Source of the DNA: Candidatus Pacearchaeota archaeon
GTDB lineage: Archaea > Nanobdellota > Nanobdellia > Pacearchaeales > GW2011-AR1
Reading direction: 5' to 3'
Assembly (NCBI GenBank): GCA_018303845.1
Contig: JAGVXH010000002.1
Coordinates: forward strand, 27,532-91,531
Length of the DNA stretch: 64,000 nucleotides
Each line of letters begins with the position of its first letter. The stretch's first letter is position 1. A program made the position numbers and the translations under genes. This document shows, one piece after another, positions 4,265 to 58,548 of this stretch. The notes below the pieces were generated by a model, which was not told where the DNA came from, searched no databases, and saw only the letters and a program-made list of their open reading frames with translations.

Positions 4265-4477
4265 ATGGAATACAAACCAAACTACGAAACTTCTTCCCTC
4301 GGGAAGAAAATCGCAAATACAGGACTAGCCCTACTTGTTGCAGGAACCTTATTTGCAGGAATCGTTGGATGCACATCCACCGGAACCTACAATGTGCCAG
4401 TGGAGACATACCAGCATGAAGGTAGAGATGGTGGCGGAAACGGCGGCGGCGGAAACGGCGGCGGCGGAGAAGGCTAA
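4265..4477 (+). CDS. Small putative lipoprotein with Gly-rich C-terminal tail
   Basis: A hydrophobic N-terminus ends in AGIVGC (lipobox-like), followed by GGGNGGGGNGGGGEG. It is followed by a perfect hairpin. Confidence 0.35.
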   Translation: MEYKPNYETSSLGKKIANTGLALLVAGTLFAGIVGCTSTGTYNVPVETYQHEGRDGGGNGGGGNGGGGEG

Positions 4478-4491
4478 TTTTTTATTTTTAA

Positions 4492-4519
4492 AAAAGAACC
4501 TATTCTTATAGGTTCTTTT
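4492..4519. terminator. Perfect inverted repeat aaaagaacctat-tctt-ataggttctttt between convergent genes
   Basis: A 12-bp stem with a 4-nt loop flanked by T/A runs lies directly after the 4265..4477 stop and downstream of the minus-strand gene ending at 4579. Confidence 0.4.
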
Positions 4520-4578
4520 AATCTTATTCTAATCAATCGCTATAATACAAAATAAAAAAATATCCTTACCAATATTAT

Positions 4579-5946
4579 CTAAGGCCTAGGGCACACAAAA
4601 CTAATTCCACCTATATCATTTGAAGCATCATCATAAACACGCACATCATAATCCAAATCATTAAAGCACTGACTATTAGCAAATCCCACAGGATCTATGA
4701 CCAGTCCAAAAGTTCCAGATACTACCTCAATATTATAGATTTTCTCAAAACCAGTTTGGGTTGTCACCCTCTTCCAAACAGTCCCAGCAGCCTCGCCACT
4801 ATTACTAACACTAACCTTATAATTACACTTATTATAATAACATCCAGCGGCTGAATCATAAGTCAAAACCGTAGTCGTCTGAGCAATACTCGCACTCAAA
4901 ACCGCAACTCCCGATGTACCCACGACGCATTTTCCATTACTGCAAACTTTTCCACTAGAACACACACTGCAATTAACGCTTGCACCACAAATCGTTTGCG
5001 TTCCACATTCAAATCCTAAACTAGAACACGTATCATAACAAGACGCCCCAACACAAGATCTGGTACTATCTAAAACATATCCAGGCCAAAGAGAACAATC
5101 CGGAGAGGCCATTTTGCAACTCGTAATTTCATAAACATCATTCCAGCACTCATAACGTTCTTTAAAAAATCCACATCCACCCGTACTTCGCCCATGATCA
5201 TATGCATCACACTCATCATCAAAATTACTTACGCACCCTCCCTTGATAACCGGGCCATCTCCCCGGCAAACTCCTTCCTTGTACAAACTATCAACACACT
5301 CACCACCAACACAAATCTTTCCACGCGAACTACAATCATCGATTACACTTCCAACCCCCCAATTTAAACAACCATCCACATCTTCTACACAATTCTGTCC
5401 CAAAACCTTAACGCCATCAGCAGAACAATCAACAAGTAATCCAGCTGCCGAACACTCATCCACACAAAACCCTGAAGGAAGCTCGCCTTCCCAAAAAAAC
5501 AATCTAACCTTTTTAGGAGAATACACAGCATCAGGTCCTCCGCCAACCTCACTGGATATCACAATTTCCTCCACATAAACATCTTTATCTAAAGTAACAA
5601 TAAAAATTTTCGAATCCATTTTACAAAAATCTGTCAAATTCCCAAGATCACAAATCCGAAGAGAATATCCAAAAACATCTGGAATTTTTTCTTTAACAAA
5701 CGCATTCAACTTATCATAGCTAGGATCTCCCGGCGAATCATCCACAACACTCAAAACATCTAATCTCAAATCAGTCCGAAGAGCAATATCTGCCAAAATT
5801 TCCTTTTGCAAACTATAACTGTAATCACTAATCGTGACCTCCTCTCGAACCGACTGGTTCGAATAAACCGCAATCATAGCCCCGCTAACAATCATAACAG
5901 CAATCGTTGCCTCCAAAATACGAATCCATCCACTCTTCCCCTTCAT
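4579..5946 (-). CDS. Large Cys-rich secreted protein with pilin-like N-terminus (possible pilus-associated adhesin)
   Basis: The N-terminus MKGKSG/WIRILEATIAVMIV resembles a class III signal peptide. There are more than 40 Cys in the ectodomain. It is the first gene of the minus-strand pilus locus. Confidence 0.45.
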   Translation of the reverse strand: MKGKSGWIRILEATIAVMIVSGAMIAVYSNQSVREEVTISDYSYSLQKEILADIALRTDLRLDVLSVVDDSPGDPSYDKLNAFVKEKIPDVFGYSLRICDLGNLTDFCKMDSKIFIVTLDKDVYVEEIVISSEVGGGPDAVYSPKKVRLFFWEGELPSGFCVDECSAAGLLVDCSADGVKVLGQNCVEDVDGCLNWGVGSVIDDCSSRGKICVGGECVDSLYKEGVCRGDGPVIKGGCVSNFDDECDAYDHGRSTGGCGFFKERYECWNDVYEITSCKMASPDCSLWPGYVLDSTRSCVGASCYDTCSSLGFECGTQTICGASVNCSVCSSGKVCSNGKCVVGTSGVAVLSASIAQTTTVLTYDSAAGCYYNKCNYKVSVSNSGEAAGTVWKRVTTQTGFEKIYNIEVVSGTFGLVIDPVGFANSQCFNDLDYDVRVYDDASNDIGGISFVCPRP

Positions 5947-6096
5947 GTAAATATTTACTTATTTATTTTTATATACTTATCCATCAAGATAAATAAACCC
6001 ACAAATTAAAATTTTAAATTTCAATCTAAAAAAGCGTTAATCAAATTTTTCTCAAGTCTTTTTATCCAACAAAAATACATCAAATAAATCTAAGAC

Positions 6097-6801
6097 TTAC
6101 CAAATTCTAATACTAATCCGCTCGTTACTAACTTCCCCATTGCTCTTTAAAACCTTCACGACATAATCCTGAGCCAAAACATTGACGACATCAGGAATAT
6201 CATTACTGGGCTTCATCTCAACCTCACTCATCCCCTCAGGAACAATCGCAAAATCAAAAATATCAGCAACTCCCAAATCTCGCTTCAACCCGCTATAATC
6301 AGTATCATACCTGACCTTCATCGCCTGCAACTTAGAATAAGAAACAACCTCCAACTCAACAACCCCGCCCAATTCAAAATCAGTCAAATGCCCACACGTC
6401 GCAACTATCCCATCCGTAAACTCAGGAGAAATTGCAACCCTAAAAAAACTATCATCCTTTTTCAAATTCAACTCTCCTTCAACAAGATTAGAGTCAATAC
6501 TAGCTCCCCCAAGTCTAGTCACTAAACTACTCTCATCAGTAATAGCATATTTGAAAAGTTCACTGGGCAATTTAATATAAAAACAAGCCTTATCTCCAGT
6601 ATAATTAGTCTTCACAAAAACACTAGACAACTCAGTATTAACCTCATCACTAAATGAATCATAAACCCCCTCAAGCGCAGATTTCGGAAGTGACGAATCT
6701 TTCCATGGACTCAAAAACATAAACAGAAAAAATACAAATCCAATAAAAAACACAAATCCAATTATCATTTCAAAATGCCCCGAACCCTTCTTCCCTCTCA
6801 T
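6097..6801 (-). CDS. Pilin-like / pilus assembly protein with class-III-like signal
   Basis: N-terminus is KKGSGHFEMIIGFVFFIGFVFF, a charged-Gly cleavage context plus a hydrophobic helix, within the pilus locus. Confidence 0.4.
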   Translation of the reverse strand: MRGKKGSGHFEMIIGFVFFIGFVFFLFMFLSPWKDSSLPKSALEGVYDSFSDEVNTELSSVFVKTNYTGDKACFYIKLPSELFKYAITDESSLVTRLGGASIDSNLVEGELNLKKDDSFFRVAISPEFTDGIVATCGHLTDFELGGVVELEVVSYSKLQAMKVRYDTDYSGLKRDLGVADIFDFAIVPEGMSEVEMKPSNDIPDVVNVLAQDYVVKVLKSNGEVSNERISIRIW

Positions 6802-15305: not shown

Positions 15306-15357
15306 AAAAAACAAAAGGTAAAAACCTTTAAAAGAGTTGTCATTCTCTTCCCTACAT

Positions 15358-15438
15358 GCCCACATCGCATATCGGTATTGCAGCGGATTGCTAATCCGCG
15401 CCCTCCGGGGCCGGCAGGTTCGACTCCTGCTGTGGGCG
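15358..15438 (+). tRNA. tRNA-Ser (anticodon GCU), type II with long variable arm
   Basis: Manual fold: acceptor GCCCACA/UGUGGGC, anticodon stem GCGGA/UCCGC with loop UUGCUAA, T-arm GCAGG-UUCGACU-CCUGC. CCA is not encoded. Confidence 0.75.
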
Positions 15439-15508
15439 TTCATTATCGAAACTGACGGCTTGACGGCTGGTTTAAAAAAAAATAAAGTTTTTCTTTAGGA
15501 ATCTTTGA

Positions 15509-15555
15509 TTCCGTGTCCGAGTGTCTCTGACACGAAGGCGACTCCTACCGTAGGC
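15509..15555 (+). repeat. tRNA-associated element: conserved motif TTCCGTGTCCGAGTGTCTCTGACACGAAGG fused to a 17-bp copy of the tRNA-Ser 3' end (from the T-loop)
   Basis: cgactcctaccgtaggc after the motif matches the tRNA-Ser 3' end cgactcctgctgtgggc, which lies 70 bp upstream. The same motif family is found at the tRNA-Leu and tRNA-Met loci. Confidence 0.55.
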
Positions 15556-15843
15556 AGTCTAACAAAAATGCAATGTAATTGTAAACAACATTGTCACCGA
15601 CGCTGTTTGTAATCCCTATAAGATTACAAGAAAAACTTATAACTATAAACACCATCTAATATCATTCGATTTATCAGCTTTGGCTTCGGTCAATTCAACC
15701 TAATCGAATGTTCGGCTTCGGTCGAATGGAAGAGAGGTGATGCATTAGAATCAATACTCTTCCATTTTACAATTACATTCAAAATAACAATATTTTCTCT
15801 TCTTCACCTAAATCCTTATAAACAAAATAGAATATCTCGCCAT

Positions 15844-49635: not shown

Positions 49636-49708
49636 AGCCTCCGGCGGGAGTCAAACCCGCGACCTCAACATTACGAGTGTTGCGCTCTGTCAACTGAGCT
49701 ACGAAGGC
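49636..49708 (-). tRNA. tRNA-Thr (anticodon CGU)
   Basis: Manual fold: acceptor GCCUUCG/CGAGGGC-type 7 bp, D-stem GCUC/GAGC, anticodon stem CAACA/UGUUG with loop CUCGUAA, T-arm GCGGG-UUUGACU-CCCGC. Confidence 0.8.
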
Positions 49709-54750: not shown

Positions 54751-54786
54751 TAAAACTTATAACCCATATAAATATCCAAAATACAT

Positions 54787-54869
54787 GTGGGGATGCCGGA
54801 GTGGCCAAACGGGCTGGCTTTAAGCGCCAGTAGCATCTGCTTACGGGGGTTCGAATCCTCCTCCCCACA
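54787..54869 (+). tRNA. tRNA-Leu (anticodon UAA), type II
   Basis: Manual fold: acceptor GUGGGGA/UCCCCAC, anticodon stem CUGGC/GCCAG with loop UUUAAGC, long variable arm, T-arm GGGGG-UUCGAAU-CCUCC. Confidence 0.8.
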
Positions 54870-54990
54870 TTTATACAATTCAATTTATTGAATTGTATTT
54901 ATTTTTGGAAGACGATTCTAATGCTCGAACTTTACGGGGGTTTGCGAAAAATTACGAAGTAACTTTTTCGCAGAAAAATTCAAAGAATTT

Positions 54991-55040
54991 TTCGTGTCCG
55001 AGTGTTCTTCATAACACGAAGGCGAATCCTCCTCTCTACA
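54991..55040 (+). repeat. tRNA-associated element: motif TTCGTGTCCGAGTGTTCTTCATAACACGAAGG fused to an 18-bp copy of the tRNA-Leu 3' end
   Basis: cgaatcctcctctctaca matches the tRNA-Leu 3' end cgaatcctcctccccaca, which lies 120 bp upstream. Two hairpins sit in the spacer. Confidence 0.55.
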
Positions 55041-55307
55041 TTAAAAATATTTTTCTAAAACCTTATTCATCTCGTCTGCAAAAGTTGTGTCACAGCAGTT
55101 CCTACAAATAAAATCAATCAAAGCGATATACCCCAAAAGGAAAATAAGCCCAAACAATATTGCCATAACCATCCTCAAGCTTCCCGTAACCTGTAATAAA
55201 ATTTCTCCAGCTAAAACCTTCTCCATAGTAGGATATCCGAATATCAAGGACCCCACTCCGTAAAAAAATTCTCCTACAGAAATACCTACACCTTTGATAT
55301 CTGCCAT
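55041..55307 (-). CDS. Hypothetical small membrane protein (internal start MADIKG)
   Basis: This is ORF-based only. The listed longer ORF extends into the repeat region. Confidence 0.25.
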   Translation of the reverse strand: MADIKGVGISVGEFFYGVGSLIFGYPTMEKVLAGEILLQVTGSLRMVMAILFGLIFLLGYIALIDFICRNCCDTTFADEMNKVLEKYF

Positions 55308-55349
55308 AAAACAAAAATGAATCTCCACTTTATATATTAGAGGTATCAA

Positions 55350-55580
55350 GATTAGATAGCGGGCGAACAATTTGCATTTGAAAAAGAATATTTTTCTTCG
55401 AAAAATTTTTTCAAAAGCAAATTGCAAGTAGGGATTTCAAATCCTCGTCAACGCATAGCGGGCGAAAACTTCGCGCGAATTTTGTCCTAGAACAAAAATT
55501 AGACAAAATTTTAGTGCAAAGTTTGAGTAGGGATTTTTCAAATCTCTCCCTGCCATAGCGGGGGCAGGATGCGGACAAAA
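55350..55580. repeat. Degenerate roughly 100-bp direct repeats carrying GTAGGGATTT(T)CAAATC...ATAGCGGG(C/G)G cores (tRNA-Met 3'-end-like)
   Basis: Cores occur at 55355, 55453 and 55553. The last copy, tagcggggcaggat, matches the plus-strand image of the tRNA-Met acceptor/T-arm tagcggggacaggat. Copies are irregularly spaced. Confidence 0.4.
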
Positions 55581-55641
55581 AGTCTAGAAGGCGGCTATCT
55601 TATCTACTACTGGAAAAATAAACTATACCTGTCTGTCCAAA

Positions 55642-56391
55642 TTAAGGACAATCAATTATCTTGCTCTGGCCGTATTTATGATCAGAACTTCCTGAATTTA
55701 TATTAGGTTTTATCTCTCCAGCTTCATAAGATCCAGGCAAATCAACAGAATCCTCCGCCACCCAACTGGTGAAGGAAACTTCTCCTTGCATTCTCTGACA
55801 ATAATAATTTTCAGGATACATATTCTTAGTCACCATTGTCCAATCACCGCAATCAGTTATATATCCCAAAGGCCGTTGCCCGGAACCATCCAAATAAAAT
55901 CTTGTTCCCACAGGGCCCTGTGCTTTTCCAGAAGAAACAGCATTATATTTAGTAAGATAACCGTTATTTCCAGCAATTGTACACACCGCAGAATCAATTG
56001 TGACTTCAGTCGTAACTATATCTGGAGCCGCTGTAATCTCTCCTCCAGAATCTCCTACATCAATCTTTATCGGATCAGAAGTGGTCATCTCACACTGGCC
56101 TGCAATACAACACTTTTGACTTTTAGGTATGCAAAACATACCACACATCTTTTTATCATCGCTACATGAGTTACAAATTGTATTCTCAGTCACAGATTCA
56201 AGACAATAACTTCCTCCAGAACTGCACCGGGCATTAGTTGGAATACACCCATCATCGCATCTCTGCAATCCTGCAGGGCAAATAGATTTAACGTTAGAAT
56301 CCGACATATAGCTAAAGATCATTATACTCGCAAGAATCAGAACAACCCCTCCAATAACAAAAGGCCACTTAATACCTACCATAGAATACAC
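55642..56391 (-). CDS. Secreted Cys-rich protein (signal/TM anchor plus Cys-knot-like N-terminal region)
   Basis: There is an N-terminal hydrophobic segment and 20 Cys. No family recognised. Confidence 0.4.
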   Translation of the reverse strand: MYSMVGIKWPFVIGGVVLILASIMIFSYMSDSNVKSICPAGLQRCDDGCIPTNARCSSGGSYCLESVTENTICNSCSDDKKMCGMFCIPKSQKCCIAGQCEMTTSDPIKIDVGDSGGEITAAPDIVTTEVTIDSAVCTIAGNNGYLTKYNAVSSGKAQGPVGTRFYLDGSGQRPLGYITDCGDWTMVTKNMYPENYYCQRMQGEVSFTSWVAEDSVDLPGSYEAGEIKPNINSGSSDHKYGQSKIIDCP

Positions 56392-56476
56392 AAATCAAAA
56401 TATTATTTAAATCTTATCAATCAAGGTTCAAATCTGACTCTATCAAAAAATGAGATTTTACCGACGATAAAAAAAA

Positions 56477-56552
56477 TAGCGGGGACAGGATTTGAACCAT
56501 GTGACCTCGAGGTTATGGGCCTCGCGAGCTGACCAGACTGCTCCACCCCGCT
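56477..56552 (-). tRNA. tRNA-Met (anticodon CAU), probably initiator-type (A1:U72); T-stem carries a one-nucleotide bulge
   Basis: Manual fold: acceptor AGCGGGG/CCCCGCU, D-stem GAGC/GCUC, anticodon stem CGAGG/CCUCG with loop CCCAUAA. The T-arm ACAUGG-UUCAAAU-CCUGU needs a U bulge. A TTTATAA box lies about 25 nt upstream. Confidence 0.6.
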
Positions 56553-56653
56553 ACACAATTAAACGCCTAAAACGTGTTATAAATCTTTCTTTAAGCAAAA
56601 ACAAGGGGACTGGATTAAAAGTTCTTTATGAACTTTTAGAAATTCAAGAGAAT

Positions 56654-56779
56654 TTCGTGTCCGAGCTTCTTTGAAGCGAAGGTTGAACTATTGTGACCTC
56701 GAGGTTATGGGAATCGCTGGTCGGGACAGACTGCTCCATCCCGCTACACAATTAAACATCTAAAACGTGTTATAAATCG
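56654..56779 (-). repeat. tRNA-associated element: motif (TTCGTGTCCGAGCTTCTTTGAAGCGAAGG on plus) fused to a copy of the tRNA-Met 5' two-thirds plus its promoter
   Basis: 56683-56746 is a diverged copy of tRNA-Met from acceptor 5' end to T-loop. 56747-56779 copies the 33-bp promoter region cacaattaaac..ctaaaacgtgttataaatc found at 56553-56585. Confidence 0.55.
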
Positions 56780-56799
56780 TTATTATAAAAAAGTCGAAC

Positions 56800-57330
56800 T
56801 CAATAACTCAAAAAAGAAACATCAAGCTTATTCATTCTCAAATAAAATTCATAATCCGGAAAACCTTTCTTGGACTCTATAAACATTTTCCCAAGTCCTT
56901 CCCAAAAAGCAAACCATCCGGCCGGCTCAGAAATTATAAAAAATAAATCAATCAAAAAACTATCCGAACTAAATCTATATGCAAAAGTAGCGACAATCAT
57001 AATAATCGTTCCAAGAAAAACCCAAAATAAACCTTCAACCCAAATCTTCTTTATTCCTTTTTTTTGAATCACAAAATTTTTATAAAAATGTTCTTTAAGT
57101 CTACGCTTAATCCTTAATTCGTCCGGCTTTTTACGAAACTTTCTAGGGACAAGAAGACGAAGTTCAATCTTCTCAGAATCTTTCTCTCTAGCCGCCCGCC
57201 TGCATTCTAACAAAAAATCCTCAGACAAAGCACGATCAGAATAAGGCCTAGGATCAAAATCAGAAAATAAATCATTATAAGAATCTAAAATCAAACTGAC
57301 ATTACCTTCTCTTAAATTAACTTTTCCCAT
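56800..57330 (-). CDS. Hypothetical membrane protein
   Basis: There is a soluble N-terminal domain and two C-terminal TM helices. Confidence 0.35.
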   Translation of the reverse strand: MGKVNLREGNVSLILDSYNDLFSDFDPRPYSDRALSEDFLLECRRAAREKDSEKIELRLLVPRKFRKKPDELRIKRRLKEHFYKNFVIQKKGIKKIWVEGLFWVFLGTIIMIVATFAYRFSSDSFLIDLFFIISEPAGWFAFWEGLGKMFIESKKGFPDYEFYLRMNKLDVSFLSY

Positions 57331-57369
57331 AGAGCCAAAAAATATATTGGGTTAATAAACTCTTTGAAA

Positions 57370-57813
57370 TCAATAACAAAAAATATCTTTTTTTTCCGAA
57401 ATCTCACTGCCATCCTCGTATCTCATAATTTTCATAAAAGAACATCCAGAAGCACCAATATTCTTACCAATATAATCTAATAAAAAATTTCCATCCATAT
57501 CCAGATTACAGGTATTGAAATCAAACTCCATAAAGCCATCCTCGGGCCAACTATGAGCAGAAGCATGAGACTCCGTAATCCCAATCAAAACCGTAGCTCC
57601 TTGTGGATAAAACTGCTTAACAGATTTAGAAAAAATATTCGCCCCAATATCAACCAGCCCATCGCAAATCAACCCGCACAAAAATTCCGCATCATCAATC
57701 ACAAGCTTACCACTATCAACCCGTCTTCTACAACCAGAGAAACTTGCAATCCAGTGAATTCCATATAATTTCTTTTCCACATTACCATAAATTTTTACTG
57801 CTGGGCAAAACAA
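57370..57813 (-). CDS. speH: S-adenosylmethionine decarboxylase proenzyme (class 1b, SpeH-type)
   Basis: It has LYGIH, PQGATVL and the self-processing ESHASAHSWPE motif. Confidence 0.7.
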   Translation of the reverse strand: MFCPAVKIYGNVEKKLYGIHWIASFSGCRRRVDSGKLVIDDAEFLCGLICDGLVDIGANIFSKSVKQFYPQGATVLIGITESHASAHSWPEDGFMEFDFNTCNLDMDGNFLLDYIGKNIGASGCSFMKIMRYEDGSEISEKKDIFCY

Positions 57814-57888
57814 ATTTAAAAACCTTGCCCCTAATACAAAGAAATCTCAAGCCCACAACATTAAAAACATCAATCTCTTAAAATCAAA

Positions 57889-58548
57889 ATGAAACTTCTA
57901 GGAATCGACGACGCAGGACGGGGACCAGTCCTCGGGCCAATGGTTTTAGCAGGAATAATCGCAAACCCGCAAGACGAAACAATCCTAAAATCATGGAATG
58001 CAAAAGATTCAAAACTTTTATCTCCCCTTCAAAGAAAAACAATCGCAGACAAAATAAGACCACAATTCATTCACTACATCGTAACATCCTCGCCAAAACA
58101 AATCGATGAATCCTCAAATCTAAACTACCTCGAAGCAATCAAAACCGCCCAAATCATAAACCATCTAACAAAAGACATTCAAGAAAAAACCACAGCCATA
58201 ATAGACTGTCCGTCGGTAAACATAGAAAGTTGGACCAGAGACGTCCAAAAACTCCTAGAAAAACCGGAAAATATAATCCTTCAATGCGAACACAAAGCAG
58301 ACGCCAATCACCCAATCGTCTCCGCTGCCTCAATCCTAGCAAAAGAAAAAAGAGAAGAAGAAATGGGAAAATTAAGACAAACCTTTAAAATTGACTTCGG
58401 CTCAGGATACCCAGCCGATCCAAAAACAAAAAAATTCATCTTAGAAAACTTCAACAACAAAGAATACTCTTCAATAATAAGATTCTCCTGGAGCACCGTA
58501 AAAAAACTAATTCAAGCAAAAACCTCGCCACAAAAAAAATTATTTTGA
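57889..58548 (+). CDS. rnhB: Ribonuclease HII
   Basis: MKLLGIDDAGRGPVLGPMVLAGI is the canonical RNase HII N-terminus. Confidence 0.9.
   Translation: MKLLGIDDAGRGPVLGPMVLAGIIANPQDETILKSWNAKDSKLLSPLQRKTIADKIRPQFIHYIVTSSPKQIDESSNLNYLEAIKTAQIINHLTKDIQEKTTAIIDCPSVNIESWTRDVQKLLEKPENIILQCEHKADANHPIVSAASILAKEKREEEMGKLRQTFKIDFGSGYPADPKTKKFILENFNNKEYSSIIRFSWSTVKKLIQAKTSPQKKLF

Follow-up and report, generated by a model that had tools for sequence, protein, structure and literature searches.

The stretch of DNA analysed here, hereafter the window, spans 64,000 nucleotides of a contig from a Candidatus Pacearchaeota archaeon (JAGVXH010000002.1) and contains four tRNA genes, as identified by ARAGORN and Rfam: tRNA-Ser(GCT) (15357-15439, plus strand; 50 bits against the Rfam tRNA model), tRNA-Thr(CGT) (49636-49708, minus strand), tRNA-Leu(TAA) (54786-54870, plus strand) and tRNA-Met(CAT) (56476-56553, minus strand), the last with a promoter region at 56554-56585. 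Beside three of the four, the intact Ser, Leu and Met genes, lies a copy of a non-coding element of 65-80 nt, termed family A, which interrupts a partial duplicate of the neighbouring tRNA. The element has a conserved structure, is inserted with precision in either of two orientations and with no duplication at its junctions, is patchily distributed, and is one of several families. The RNase HII encoded in the window is 100% identical to a protein listed by NCBI under Candidatus Pacearchaeota. The same DNA as that of the window was found on 22 contigs of up to 161 kb from Rifle groundwater and other metagenomes, and the arrangement recurs in independent assemblies (JGI, ENA, Logan and NCBI), which excludes an assembly artefact.

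A preliminary description of this DNA had drawn attention to a 32-bp motif abutting tRNA fragments. The motif proved to be the 3' end of family A, which comprises three hairpins (P2, P3 and P4), and the 70-120-bp spacer described beside it is mostly the conserved element itself. The pattern GTCCGAG-N(6-24)-CGAAG matches the window three times (at 15515, 54996 and 56659), always on the plus strand, against a chance expectation of 0.02. A covariance-model search of the window likewise gave three matches at 74-81 bits, corresponding to the copies at 15473-15538 (Ser), 54943-55022 (Leu) and 56616-56682 (Met), with the next best match at 20 bits. That match (4454-4525) was rejected as a fourth copy, being only an A/T-rich terminator-like hairpin; on the minus strand at 4420-4475, the 3' end of the open reading frame (ORF) 4579-5946 (minus strand) carries a run of GCCGCC/GTTTCC repeats that leads into this hairpin. 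At the tRNA-Thr locus the covariance model, run with filters off, found no family-A copy, so the element does not occur at every tRNA locus, as had been supposed.

The family-A scaffold folds, from 5' to 3', into the long A/U-rich hairpin P2, the hairpin P3, a single-stranded GTGTCCGA, the 5-bp hairpin P4 and a terminal GAAGG, with an invariant CC...GG pair and a GA/GAA internal loop enclosing P4. The Leu copy (54943-55022, plus strand), recognized by its fold and a covariance-model match of 81.4 bits, has P2 as GCGAAAAATTAC-GAA-GTAACTTTTTCGC, P3 as GAAAAATTC-AAA-GAATTTTTC and P4 as GTGTT-CTTCAT-AACAC, and its last 32 bases are the motif first described. The Ser copy (15473-15538, plus strand; covariance-model matches of 77.7 and 93.2 bits) follows the same order, with P3 formed by GGAATC/GATTCC, then GTGTCCGA, P4 formed by GTGTC/GACAC, and GAAGG. 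The Met copy (56616-56682; 73.9 bits) also lies on the plus strand, which here is opposite to tRNA-Met, and has P2 as AAAAGTTC.../GAACTTTT, P3 as GAAATTC-AAGA-GAATTTC and P4 as GCTTC-TTT-GAAGC. This anatomy revises two statements on the motif. A 12-mer held to be identical in all three copies reads TCCGTGTCCGAG in the Ser copy, with TCCG instead of TTCG and a compensating change in P3. The supposed terminal inverted repeat of 7 bp, TTCGTGT/ACACGAA, is missing in the Met copy and in most others, and its bases are otherwise explained: the TTTC shared with the 12-mer is the 3' strand of P3, and GTGTT...AACAC is P4. A K-turn (an L7Ae site) in CC-GA-[P4]-GAA-GG was rejected, as the strand needing a 3-nt bulge has none, and so was a box C/D or H/ACA RNA in the spacer, no box C being visible by eye at the Leu and Ser loci.

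To describe the structure across genomes, 19 copies from the window and 15 other contigs were aligned to a covariance model (R2) of 22 base pairs. Standard pairs make up 98.5% of the pair cells, compared to 80% in shuffles, a level reached by none of the 500 shuffles, although the alignment was fitted to the structure and thereby favours it in such pairing statistics. Double-sided changes occur in 14 of the 22 pairs (80 cells), and as a control, sliding the 3' partner by 1-3 columns left a pairing of only 36-61%. An independent run of MAFFT and RNAalifold gave double changes in 10 of 15 pairs. Moreover, P3 was detected copy by copy, with no alignment, in 16 of 16 copies, as a helix of 5-9 bp with compensatory variants. 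The 19-copy alignment holds 15 G-U cells compared to 6 non-standard ones, which favours the motif strand as the folding strand, and a 22-nt single-stranded core is invariant across genomes. The compensatory changes in the three hairpins thus point to selection for structure rather than decay.

On the motif strand, all 17 aligned copies share one layout. Each unit begins with a short reverse complement of the neighbouring tRNA's T-stem 5' strand and T-loop (for example AATCGAACCC), followed by a loop of a few bases and a direct copy of the T-stem 5' strand with T54 and T55, ending in ...GGTT; then come the scaffold of 65-80 nt and the tRNA from C56 to its 3' end. In the Leu unit, the left arm (54925-54942, plus strand) consists of TCGAAC..., a reverse-complement piece of the T-loop, overlapping CTTTACGGGGGTT, a copy that runs from the last part of the variable arm through the T-stem 5' strand to T54 and T55. 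Directly after the scaffold, CGAATCCTCCTCTCTACA (55023-55040, plus strand) copies tRNA-Leu from C56 to the discriminator base at 16 of 18 positions, with two C-to-T differences, and joining the two flanks restores the tRNA-Leu T-arm at 18 of 18. The motif thus abuts a tRNA 3'-end copy that starts within the T-loop, exactly as first reported. The same architecture was confirmed at the Ser locus, where the intact tRNA-Ser is the source of the adjoining partial copy. The left arm (15446-15472, plus strand) is composed of TCGAAACTG, an imperfect reverse complement of the tRNA's CAGGTTCGA, a short loop, and GACGGCTGGTT, the T-stem 5' strand with T54 and T55, ending at the insertion point with GGTT. 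The scaffold is followed by CGACTCCTACCGTAGGCA (15539-15556, plus strand), the tRNA-Ser 3' end from C56 in a diverged form that differs from the intact gene by transitions. When joined, the two flanks agree with the tRNA-Ser T-arm at 16 of 18 positions.

The Met unit is mirror-imaged, again in line with the preliminary description. Its left arm, GGGGACTGGAT (56605-56615, plus strand), is the reverse complement of the 3' part of tRNA-Met from the acceptor 3' strand to T-loop nucleotide 59, and the scaffold is followed by a reverse-complemented partial tRNA-Met copy (56683-56778, read on the minus strand) that covers nucleotides 1-58 (56683-56746) and also duplicates 32 nt of the promoter region (56747-56778). 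No tRNA fold is possible for this copy, as its D-stem 3' strand and anticodon-stem 5' strand have been replaced.

Throughout the family, the interrupted copy is a non-functional partial duplicate, whole on its far side and truncated on the side that faces the intact gene. Direct units have only 5-13 nt of tRNA upstream of the scaffold, compared to the full 5' part and more than 30 nt of promoter that follow the scaffold in inverted Met units; the duplicated tRNA segment is 18-27 nt long in direct units, and inverted units duplicate 64 nt together with the promoter. All window units lie about 70-120 nt from an intact tRNA with the same anticodon, and such a gene is found within about 120 nt of every tRNA-adjacent copy with a complete flank; the exceptions are a few copies (L260 and L281, where L labels denote contigs or loci found in public collections) with no tRNA nearby. 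The partial copy is identical to the gene in the young-looking units L234, L239, L268, L266b, L303 and L244. The partial copies of the window have diverged from their genes, chiefly through transitions, to the point where a tRNA fold is lost; the scaffold cores of these units are intact.

Broken tRNA pieces in a DPANN host recall the split tRNA genes of Nanoarchaeum equitans and the non-canonical T-loop introns of Thermoproteales, with which family A shares breaks in loops and complementary sequences beside the 5' and 3' pieces. The units could accordingly be read as halves of split tRNA genes, or as a T-loop intron, in which complementary motifs pair before a splicing endonuclease and the RtcB ligase join the pieces. 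The trailer of the Met 5' fragment (CCTTCG...CTCGGACACGAAA) indeed exactly complements the leaders of the 3' fragments, as in Nanoarchaeum split tRNAs, and this fragment has a promoter copy of its own. We nevertheless consider this explanation very improbable, and rejected it for several reasons. In contrast to those systems, an intact gene with the same anticodon stands alongside, the pieces are non-functional, and the scaffold often lies on the strand opposite to the tRNA, as it does in all inverted copies. The window fragments give no cloverleaf, the Met stems being lost and the Ser 3' fragment, when paired with the 5' part of its neighbour, having two acceptor pairs and one T-stem pair broken. 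The leader is identical in all halves, leaving no partner specificity; no partner halves were found in the window, and close relatives with empty loci manage without such a unit. Nor, by inspection, can a bulge-helix-bulge (BHB; two 3-nt bulges with a 4-bp helix between them) be drawn at 55|56: the T-stem 5' strand would have to form the central helix with the four bases that precede the 3' junction bulge, and these are invariably CGAA and unable to pair with it. A BHB intron at this position is further contradicted by the 6 of 19 copies that are inverted and by direct copies with as little as 5-13 nt of tRNA upstream.

The junction in the T-loop, a point on which the preliminary description was right, is exact. 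Each window scaffold lies two bases into the 7-base T-loop of its partial tRNA copy, directly at Ser and Leu and inverted at Met. Direct copies, which adjoin Ser, Leu, Arg, Ile and Gln genes, are inserted between nucleotides 55 and 56 (GGTT|CGA...), and inverted copies (the window Met copy, its orthologues L244 and L302, L241 at Gln-CTG and L251 at Leu-TAG) between nucleotides 58 and 59, which on the other strand reads GGAT|TTGAACC. The two positions are mirror images about G57, the middle of the 7-nt loop, and not about the centre of TTCGAA. A restriction-site-like symmetry (TT^CGAA) was therefore rejected, hairpin geometry giving the better fit, and the recognized feature would be the stem-loop shape, which both DNA strands can adopt; a mechanism acting on the tRNA transcript is hard to reconcile with mirror positions on both strands. 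Joining the flanks rebuilds the neighbour's T-arm at 18 of 18 positions at the window Leu unit and L266b and at 15-17 of 18 in most other tRNA-adjacent copies, which shows that the target site is not duplicated. In nearly all copies the last bases of the left flank are GTT or ATT ([G/C][G/A]TT), and in one copy the flank ends in GCGT. Terminal inverted repeats are absent, the two ends of the scaffold being unrelated in sequence. An ordinary DDE-type miniature inverted-repeat transposable element, which would have terminal inverted repeats and a target-site duplication, was rejected on both counts.

On the minus strand of L266, at about 6431-6507, a family-A scaffold (L266a) is located in the D-arm of a 5' partial tRNA-Ser copy (promoter and nucleotides 1-13, then the scaffold). 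Beyond it come a stray P2-like hairpin and the remainder of the D-arm, and then the intact tRNA-Ser(TGA); another copy lies after this gene, and a weak third match occurs on the other strand at 6026-6115. At L152, L208 and L209, the 3' fragment is itself interrupted and reads CGATT, a 25-nt insert ending in GCGAAGCG, and then TGGGGTACAGGCGT, which looks like a second, nested event at the boundary of T-loop and T-stem.

A direct repeat of a tRNA segment flanking an insert, with the intact tRNA on one side, is the classical signature of integration. The units might therefore be leftovers of the attL/attR type from kilobase-sized elements, a virus or plasmid whose tyrosine integrase recombined the stretch from the T-loop to the tRNA 3' end, mostly deleted since. 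At L303, identity extends 8 nt past the end of the tRNA, as would be the case with an att core; where units of different families stand in tandem behind one tRNA, they resemble serial integrations; and disruption of a tRNA (tRNA-Thr) by an integrating element with a recombinase has been proposed for Caldiarchaeum (PMC3293823). Family A shares with that model, and with elements of the SSV and pNOB8 type, an intact tRNA next to a displaced partial direct-repeat copy, a breakpoint within the tRNA and a presence that varies among related genomes. However, the differences are considerable. Compared to SSV- and pNOB8-type elements, the insert is shorter than 130 bp and gene-free, occurs in both orientations with mirrored loop positions and one D-arm case, and has no integrase in the scanned window ORFs or in the flanks of the other contigs. 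Every copy has the same two precise boundaries, enclosing only about 65-80 nt of covarying hairpins, and identical boundaries in every copy would not result from independent deletions. In addition, no copy was found in 2.9 million viral contigs. We consider an origin from att sites unlikely, and the suggestion that the units are highly degraded scars of large integrase elements was dropped, the boundaries being the same everywhere and the interior being a selected structure with compensatory changes in three hairpins. The other option raised at the outset, a miniature non-autonomous element, agrees with a complete unit of about 65-80 nt that has precise boundaries, adjoins many tRNA genes and is present or absent at the syntenic tRNA-Met.

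The distribution of the family was surveyed by motif scans of public collections. Most matches were chance occurrences in GC-rich bacteria, and true copies were found on about 12 non-redundant low-GC archaeal contigs. A genome collection that does not include the window's own species gave 79 matches, of which 75 were bacterial and due to chance; the four archaeal ones comprised two true copies (L132 and L152) and two chance matches (L153 and L205, with a GC content of 0.64-0.65). A first viral scan was saturated by chance matches, and later, more specific scans returned two chance matches or none. Several DPANN-like genomes have family A beside tRNA genes of many kinds.

Empty sites in relatives, for which the preliminary description had called, do exist. 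We used the covariance model and ARAGORN to compare the syntenic block of tRNA-Met, RNase HII and SMC in seven relatives (L299-L305), whose RNase HII is 65-81% identical to that of the window, and the tRNA-Met locus is dynamic among them. In L300 and L305 tRNA-Met stands bare, and in L302 it is surrounded by two family-A copies. In L299 and L301 the only element belongs to a second, unrelated family, B (GCGCGAATTTT-hairpin-AAAATTTTAGTG...GAGTAG); in L304 tRNA-Met is duplicated and family B is present as two units; and L303 (3541-3990) has a third family, C, with one unit after tRNA-Leu and two tandem units after tRNA-Met. The family-C units of L303, each with a perfect tRNA copy from C56, consist of a T-stem 5' copy with TT, a scaffold of about 50 nt ending in ACGAGGATTTTATATCCGAAGT, and the tRNA from C56 to its 3' end. 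Families A and C share a terminal module, GAG-hairpin-CGAA: family A ends in CC-GAG-[hairpin]-CGAA-GG|C and family C in ...AC-GAG-[hairpin]-CGAA-GT|C, so that the framing pair is changed on both sides, from CC/GG to AC/GT. As with family A, the viral contigs gave no match to family C.

Family B is also represented in the window, at 55473-55530 on the plus strand, as GCGCGAATTTT-long hairpin-AAAATTTTAGTGCAAAGTTTGAGTAG. This copy is flanked by T-arm-like scraps (GGATTTCAAATCC at 55432 and GGATTTTTCAAATC at 55531) and by pieces resembling the end of tRNA-Met (CATAGCGGGCG at 55454 and CATAGCGGGGGCAGGAT at 55554). Elsewhere family B adjoins tRNA-Met, Arg, Ile and Gln genes (L299, L301, L244, L304, L225, L268 and L132), and its long hairpin shows compensatory changes as judged by eye.

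The gene order around these loci differs between the window and its relatives. In L299-L305, tRNA-Leu(TAA) and tRNA-Met are on the same strand, 65-170 nt apart and directly upstream of RNase HII. In the corresponding region of the window (54786-58548), Leu is inverted relative to Met, about 1.6 kb separates them, and three additional genes lie between tRNA-Met and RNase HII; the Leu-Met interval contains two minus-strand ORFs (55041-55427 and 55642-56391), neither of which matches any family. The breakpoints of this rearrangement coincide with tRNA flanks that bear an element. The window tRNA-Met(CAT), 78 nt long according to ARAGORN, carries A1-U72, as an archaeal initiator does, and its T-stem has one base too many on the 5' side (ACATGG compared to CCTGT), a peculiarity also found in relatives (CACGTGG). 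At L244 (7369-7441) and L304 (2114-2193), ARAGORN calls a second "tRNA-Met" that is in fact a 5' partial copy running into the scaffold.

Proteins that might act on the element were sought with Pfam and PHROGs in about 20 of the 29 window ORFs of at least 200 residues and in the smaller ORFs near the Leu and Met loci. The scanned ORFs contain no transposase, integrase or other recombinase, and hence not the cognate integrase for which a search had been proposed. TnpA (a Y1 HUH transposase) and TnpB were not found in the scanned ORFs of the 64-kb window or in the short flanks of the other contigs, and no protein family is common to the element-bearing loci except the synteny genes RNase HII and SMC. 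Apart from the tRNAs, no Rfam family matched at gathering or E-value thresholds. Literature searches by sequence and topic found no description of this family or of T-loop insertions in DPANN archaea, and the 12-mer appears only in unrelated lists of viral primers. The nearest published ideas are the disruption of a tRNA in Caldiarchaeum (PMC3293823) and the omega-RNAs of archaeal IS200/IS605 elements, where TnpB is served by an RNA at the 3' end of its gene (PMC12558985).

The second of these ideas suggests that the scaffold might itself be a working small RNA, of the host or domesticated, whose 3' tail is the adjacent tRNA-derived sequence in an omega-RNA-like guide layout. We hold this, the main alternative to the explanation favoured below, to be possible but doubtful. 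It would take the flank just outside the element end as the guide and GTT/ATT as the motif adjacent on the 5' side, and would have the RNA direct a protein to tRNA genes or tRNAs, or serve some other tRNA-linked role. It would account for the three covarying hairpins with G-U pairs on one strand and for the invariant 22-nt single-stranded core. It also fits a variable segment that starts at the scaffold 3' end and is identical to the neighbouring tRNA in the youngest copies (L234, L239, L268, L266b and L303), the left flank of GTT or ATT in all but a few copies (one has GCGT), and scaffolds that stay intact while the adjoining fragments decay, as at the window Ser and Met loci. The likeness to the TnpB omega-RNA, in which the flank at the scaffold 3' end would act as the guide, is nevertheless only an analogy of layout. 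No tnpB-like ORF adjoins the scaffold and no other candidate effector was found near any copy, and the scaffold, matching no Rfam family, is far shorter than omega-RNAs, which exceed 100 nt. The duplicated flank has no fixed guide length, ranging from 18 nt to more than 100 nt including the promoter, and the window tails have drifted from the tRNA, their first 20 nt being no better preserved than the remainder. Moreover, a DNA nuclease aimed at the essential intact tRNA gene next door would be self-destructive.

Taken on balance, the explanation we favour, with about an even chance of being correct, is that family A is a site-specific, non-autonomous miniature insertion module aimed at the hairpin loops of tRNA arms, whose fixation requires an accompanying partial duplication by which the tRNA stays intact. 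The process would probably run at the DNA level, through a single strand or a recombinase: the module may recognize the geometry of a tRNA-arm hairpin in single-stranded DNA, or a recombinase may join it there, and only those events would be fixed in which the partial duplication leaves an intact tRNA. One possible route starts from a small circle of the order [short arm | scaffold | long tRNA arm | linker], which recombines with the tRNA by a single crossover. Integration of such a circle would yield the intact tRNA, the linker, the short arm, the scaffold and the long arm, which is the order observed, and by this route each unit would match its own tRNA.

The closest mechanistic parallel to such a module is found in IS200/IS605 elements and PATEs, which likewise lack terminal inverted repeats and target duplication. 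Further apparent similarities to IS200/IS605 are insertion directly 3' of a short conserved flank (a tetra- or pentanucleotide in IS200/IS605; in family A [G/C][G/A]TT, with few departures), strand-specific hairpin folding that tolerates G-T pairs, and pairing of the cleavage-junction bases with bases just 5' of a hairpin. In the terminal module, the two bases that precede the junction could pair with the two 5' of the hairpin, GG with CC in family A and GT with AC in family C, following the same logic by which IS200/IS605 ends present their cleavage sites. However, family A differs in that no TnpA or TnpB was found with it, in its length of only 65-80 nt, in its target, the hairpin loop of a tRNA arm, and in the accompanying partial tRNA duplication, which IS200/IS605 elements do not produce. 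In IS200/IS605 elements, TnpA recognizes subterminal hairpins at both ends. Family A also has a hairpin near each end (P2 and P4), but compared to IS608, whose two ends share one hairpin, these two are dissimilar. A broader likeness exists to mobile DNA whose target is set by the shape of a DNA stem-loop, such as IS1111/IS110 elements in REP sequences or attC, group IIC introns at terminators and integron attC sites, where a folded single strand serves as the partner and structure is kept more than sequence. Family A, in contrast, resembles none of these in sequence or size, has no associated enzyme, and takes a tRNA arm as its target.

Several observations weigh against the insertion module. 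The short arm fits the specific neighbouring tRNA, which generic insertion into a pre-existing site does not by itself explain, and the origin of the partial duplication is a step that we infer. The scaffold structure is under purifying selection, which is easier to explain for a working RNA than for inert mobile DNA. No recombining enzyme was recognized in the scanned ORFs, no protein family other than the synteny genes accompanies the loci, and the 2.9 million viral contigs hold no family-A copy. The three window copies are mutually only 70-75% alike, and the closest match of each is a copy at the same tRNA type or in the same orientation elsewhere (90% for Leu, 86% for Ser and 80-85% for the inverted copy). 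Judged from these identities, family A appears to be old and to have been passed on mostly by vertical inheritance, and nothing indicates a recent burst. Uniformity among relatives, which the preliminary description would have taken as a sign of an old functional tRNA-flanking signal rather than mobile DNA, was not seen, the tRNA-Met locus being polymorphic, whereas recent mobility finds no support in copies so divergent.

More tentatively, family A could be part of a system not described so far, in which the shape of tRNA-arm hairpin loops is recognized, either a mini-transposon or recombination module of single-stranded DNA, or a structured RNA with a tRNA-derived tail that guides a protein. 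Such a system would have no fewer than three scaffold families (A, B and C) in competition for one position, two bases into the loop, in DPANN archaea. Site-specific miniature elements at tRNA genes are of a known kind, of which this family would be a variant, and there is a real chance that its underlying mechanism is new.

tRNA genes are classical landing sites for mobile DNA, and the origin of the interrupted, split and permuted tRNA genes of archaea is still debated. Family A bears on that question, as it marks one exact T-loop position on either strand and leaves a broken copy beside an intact tRNA. It thereby offers a natural record of tRNA disruption and rescue in genomes with single copies of each tRNA. 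The units are also relevant to annotators: they create tRNA pseudo-fragments and false second tRNA calls, as ARAGORN makes at L244 and L304, and can inflate tRNA counts in DPANN archaea. Should the scaffold prove to be a guide RNA or a substrate of active recombination, this would suggest a new enzyme specific for hairpin loops in DPANN archaea.

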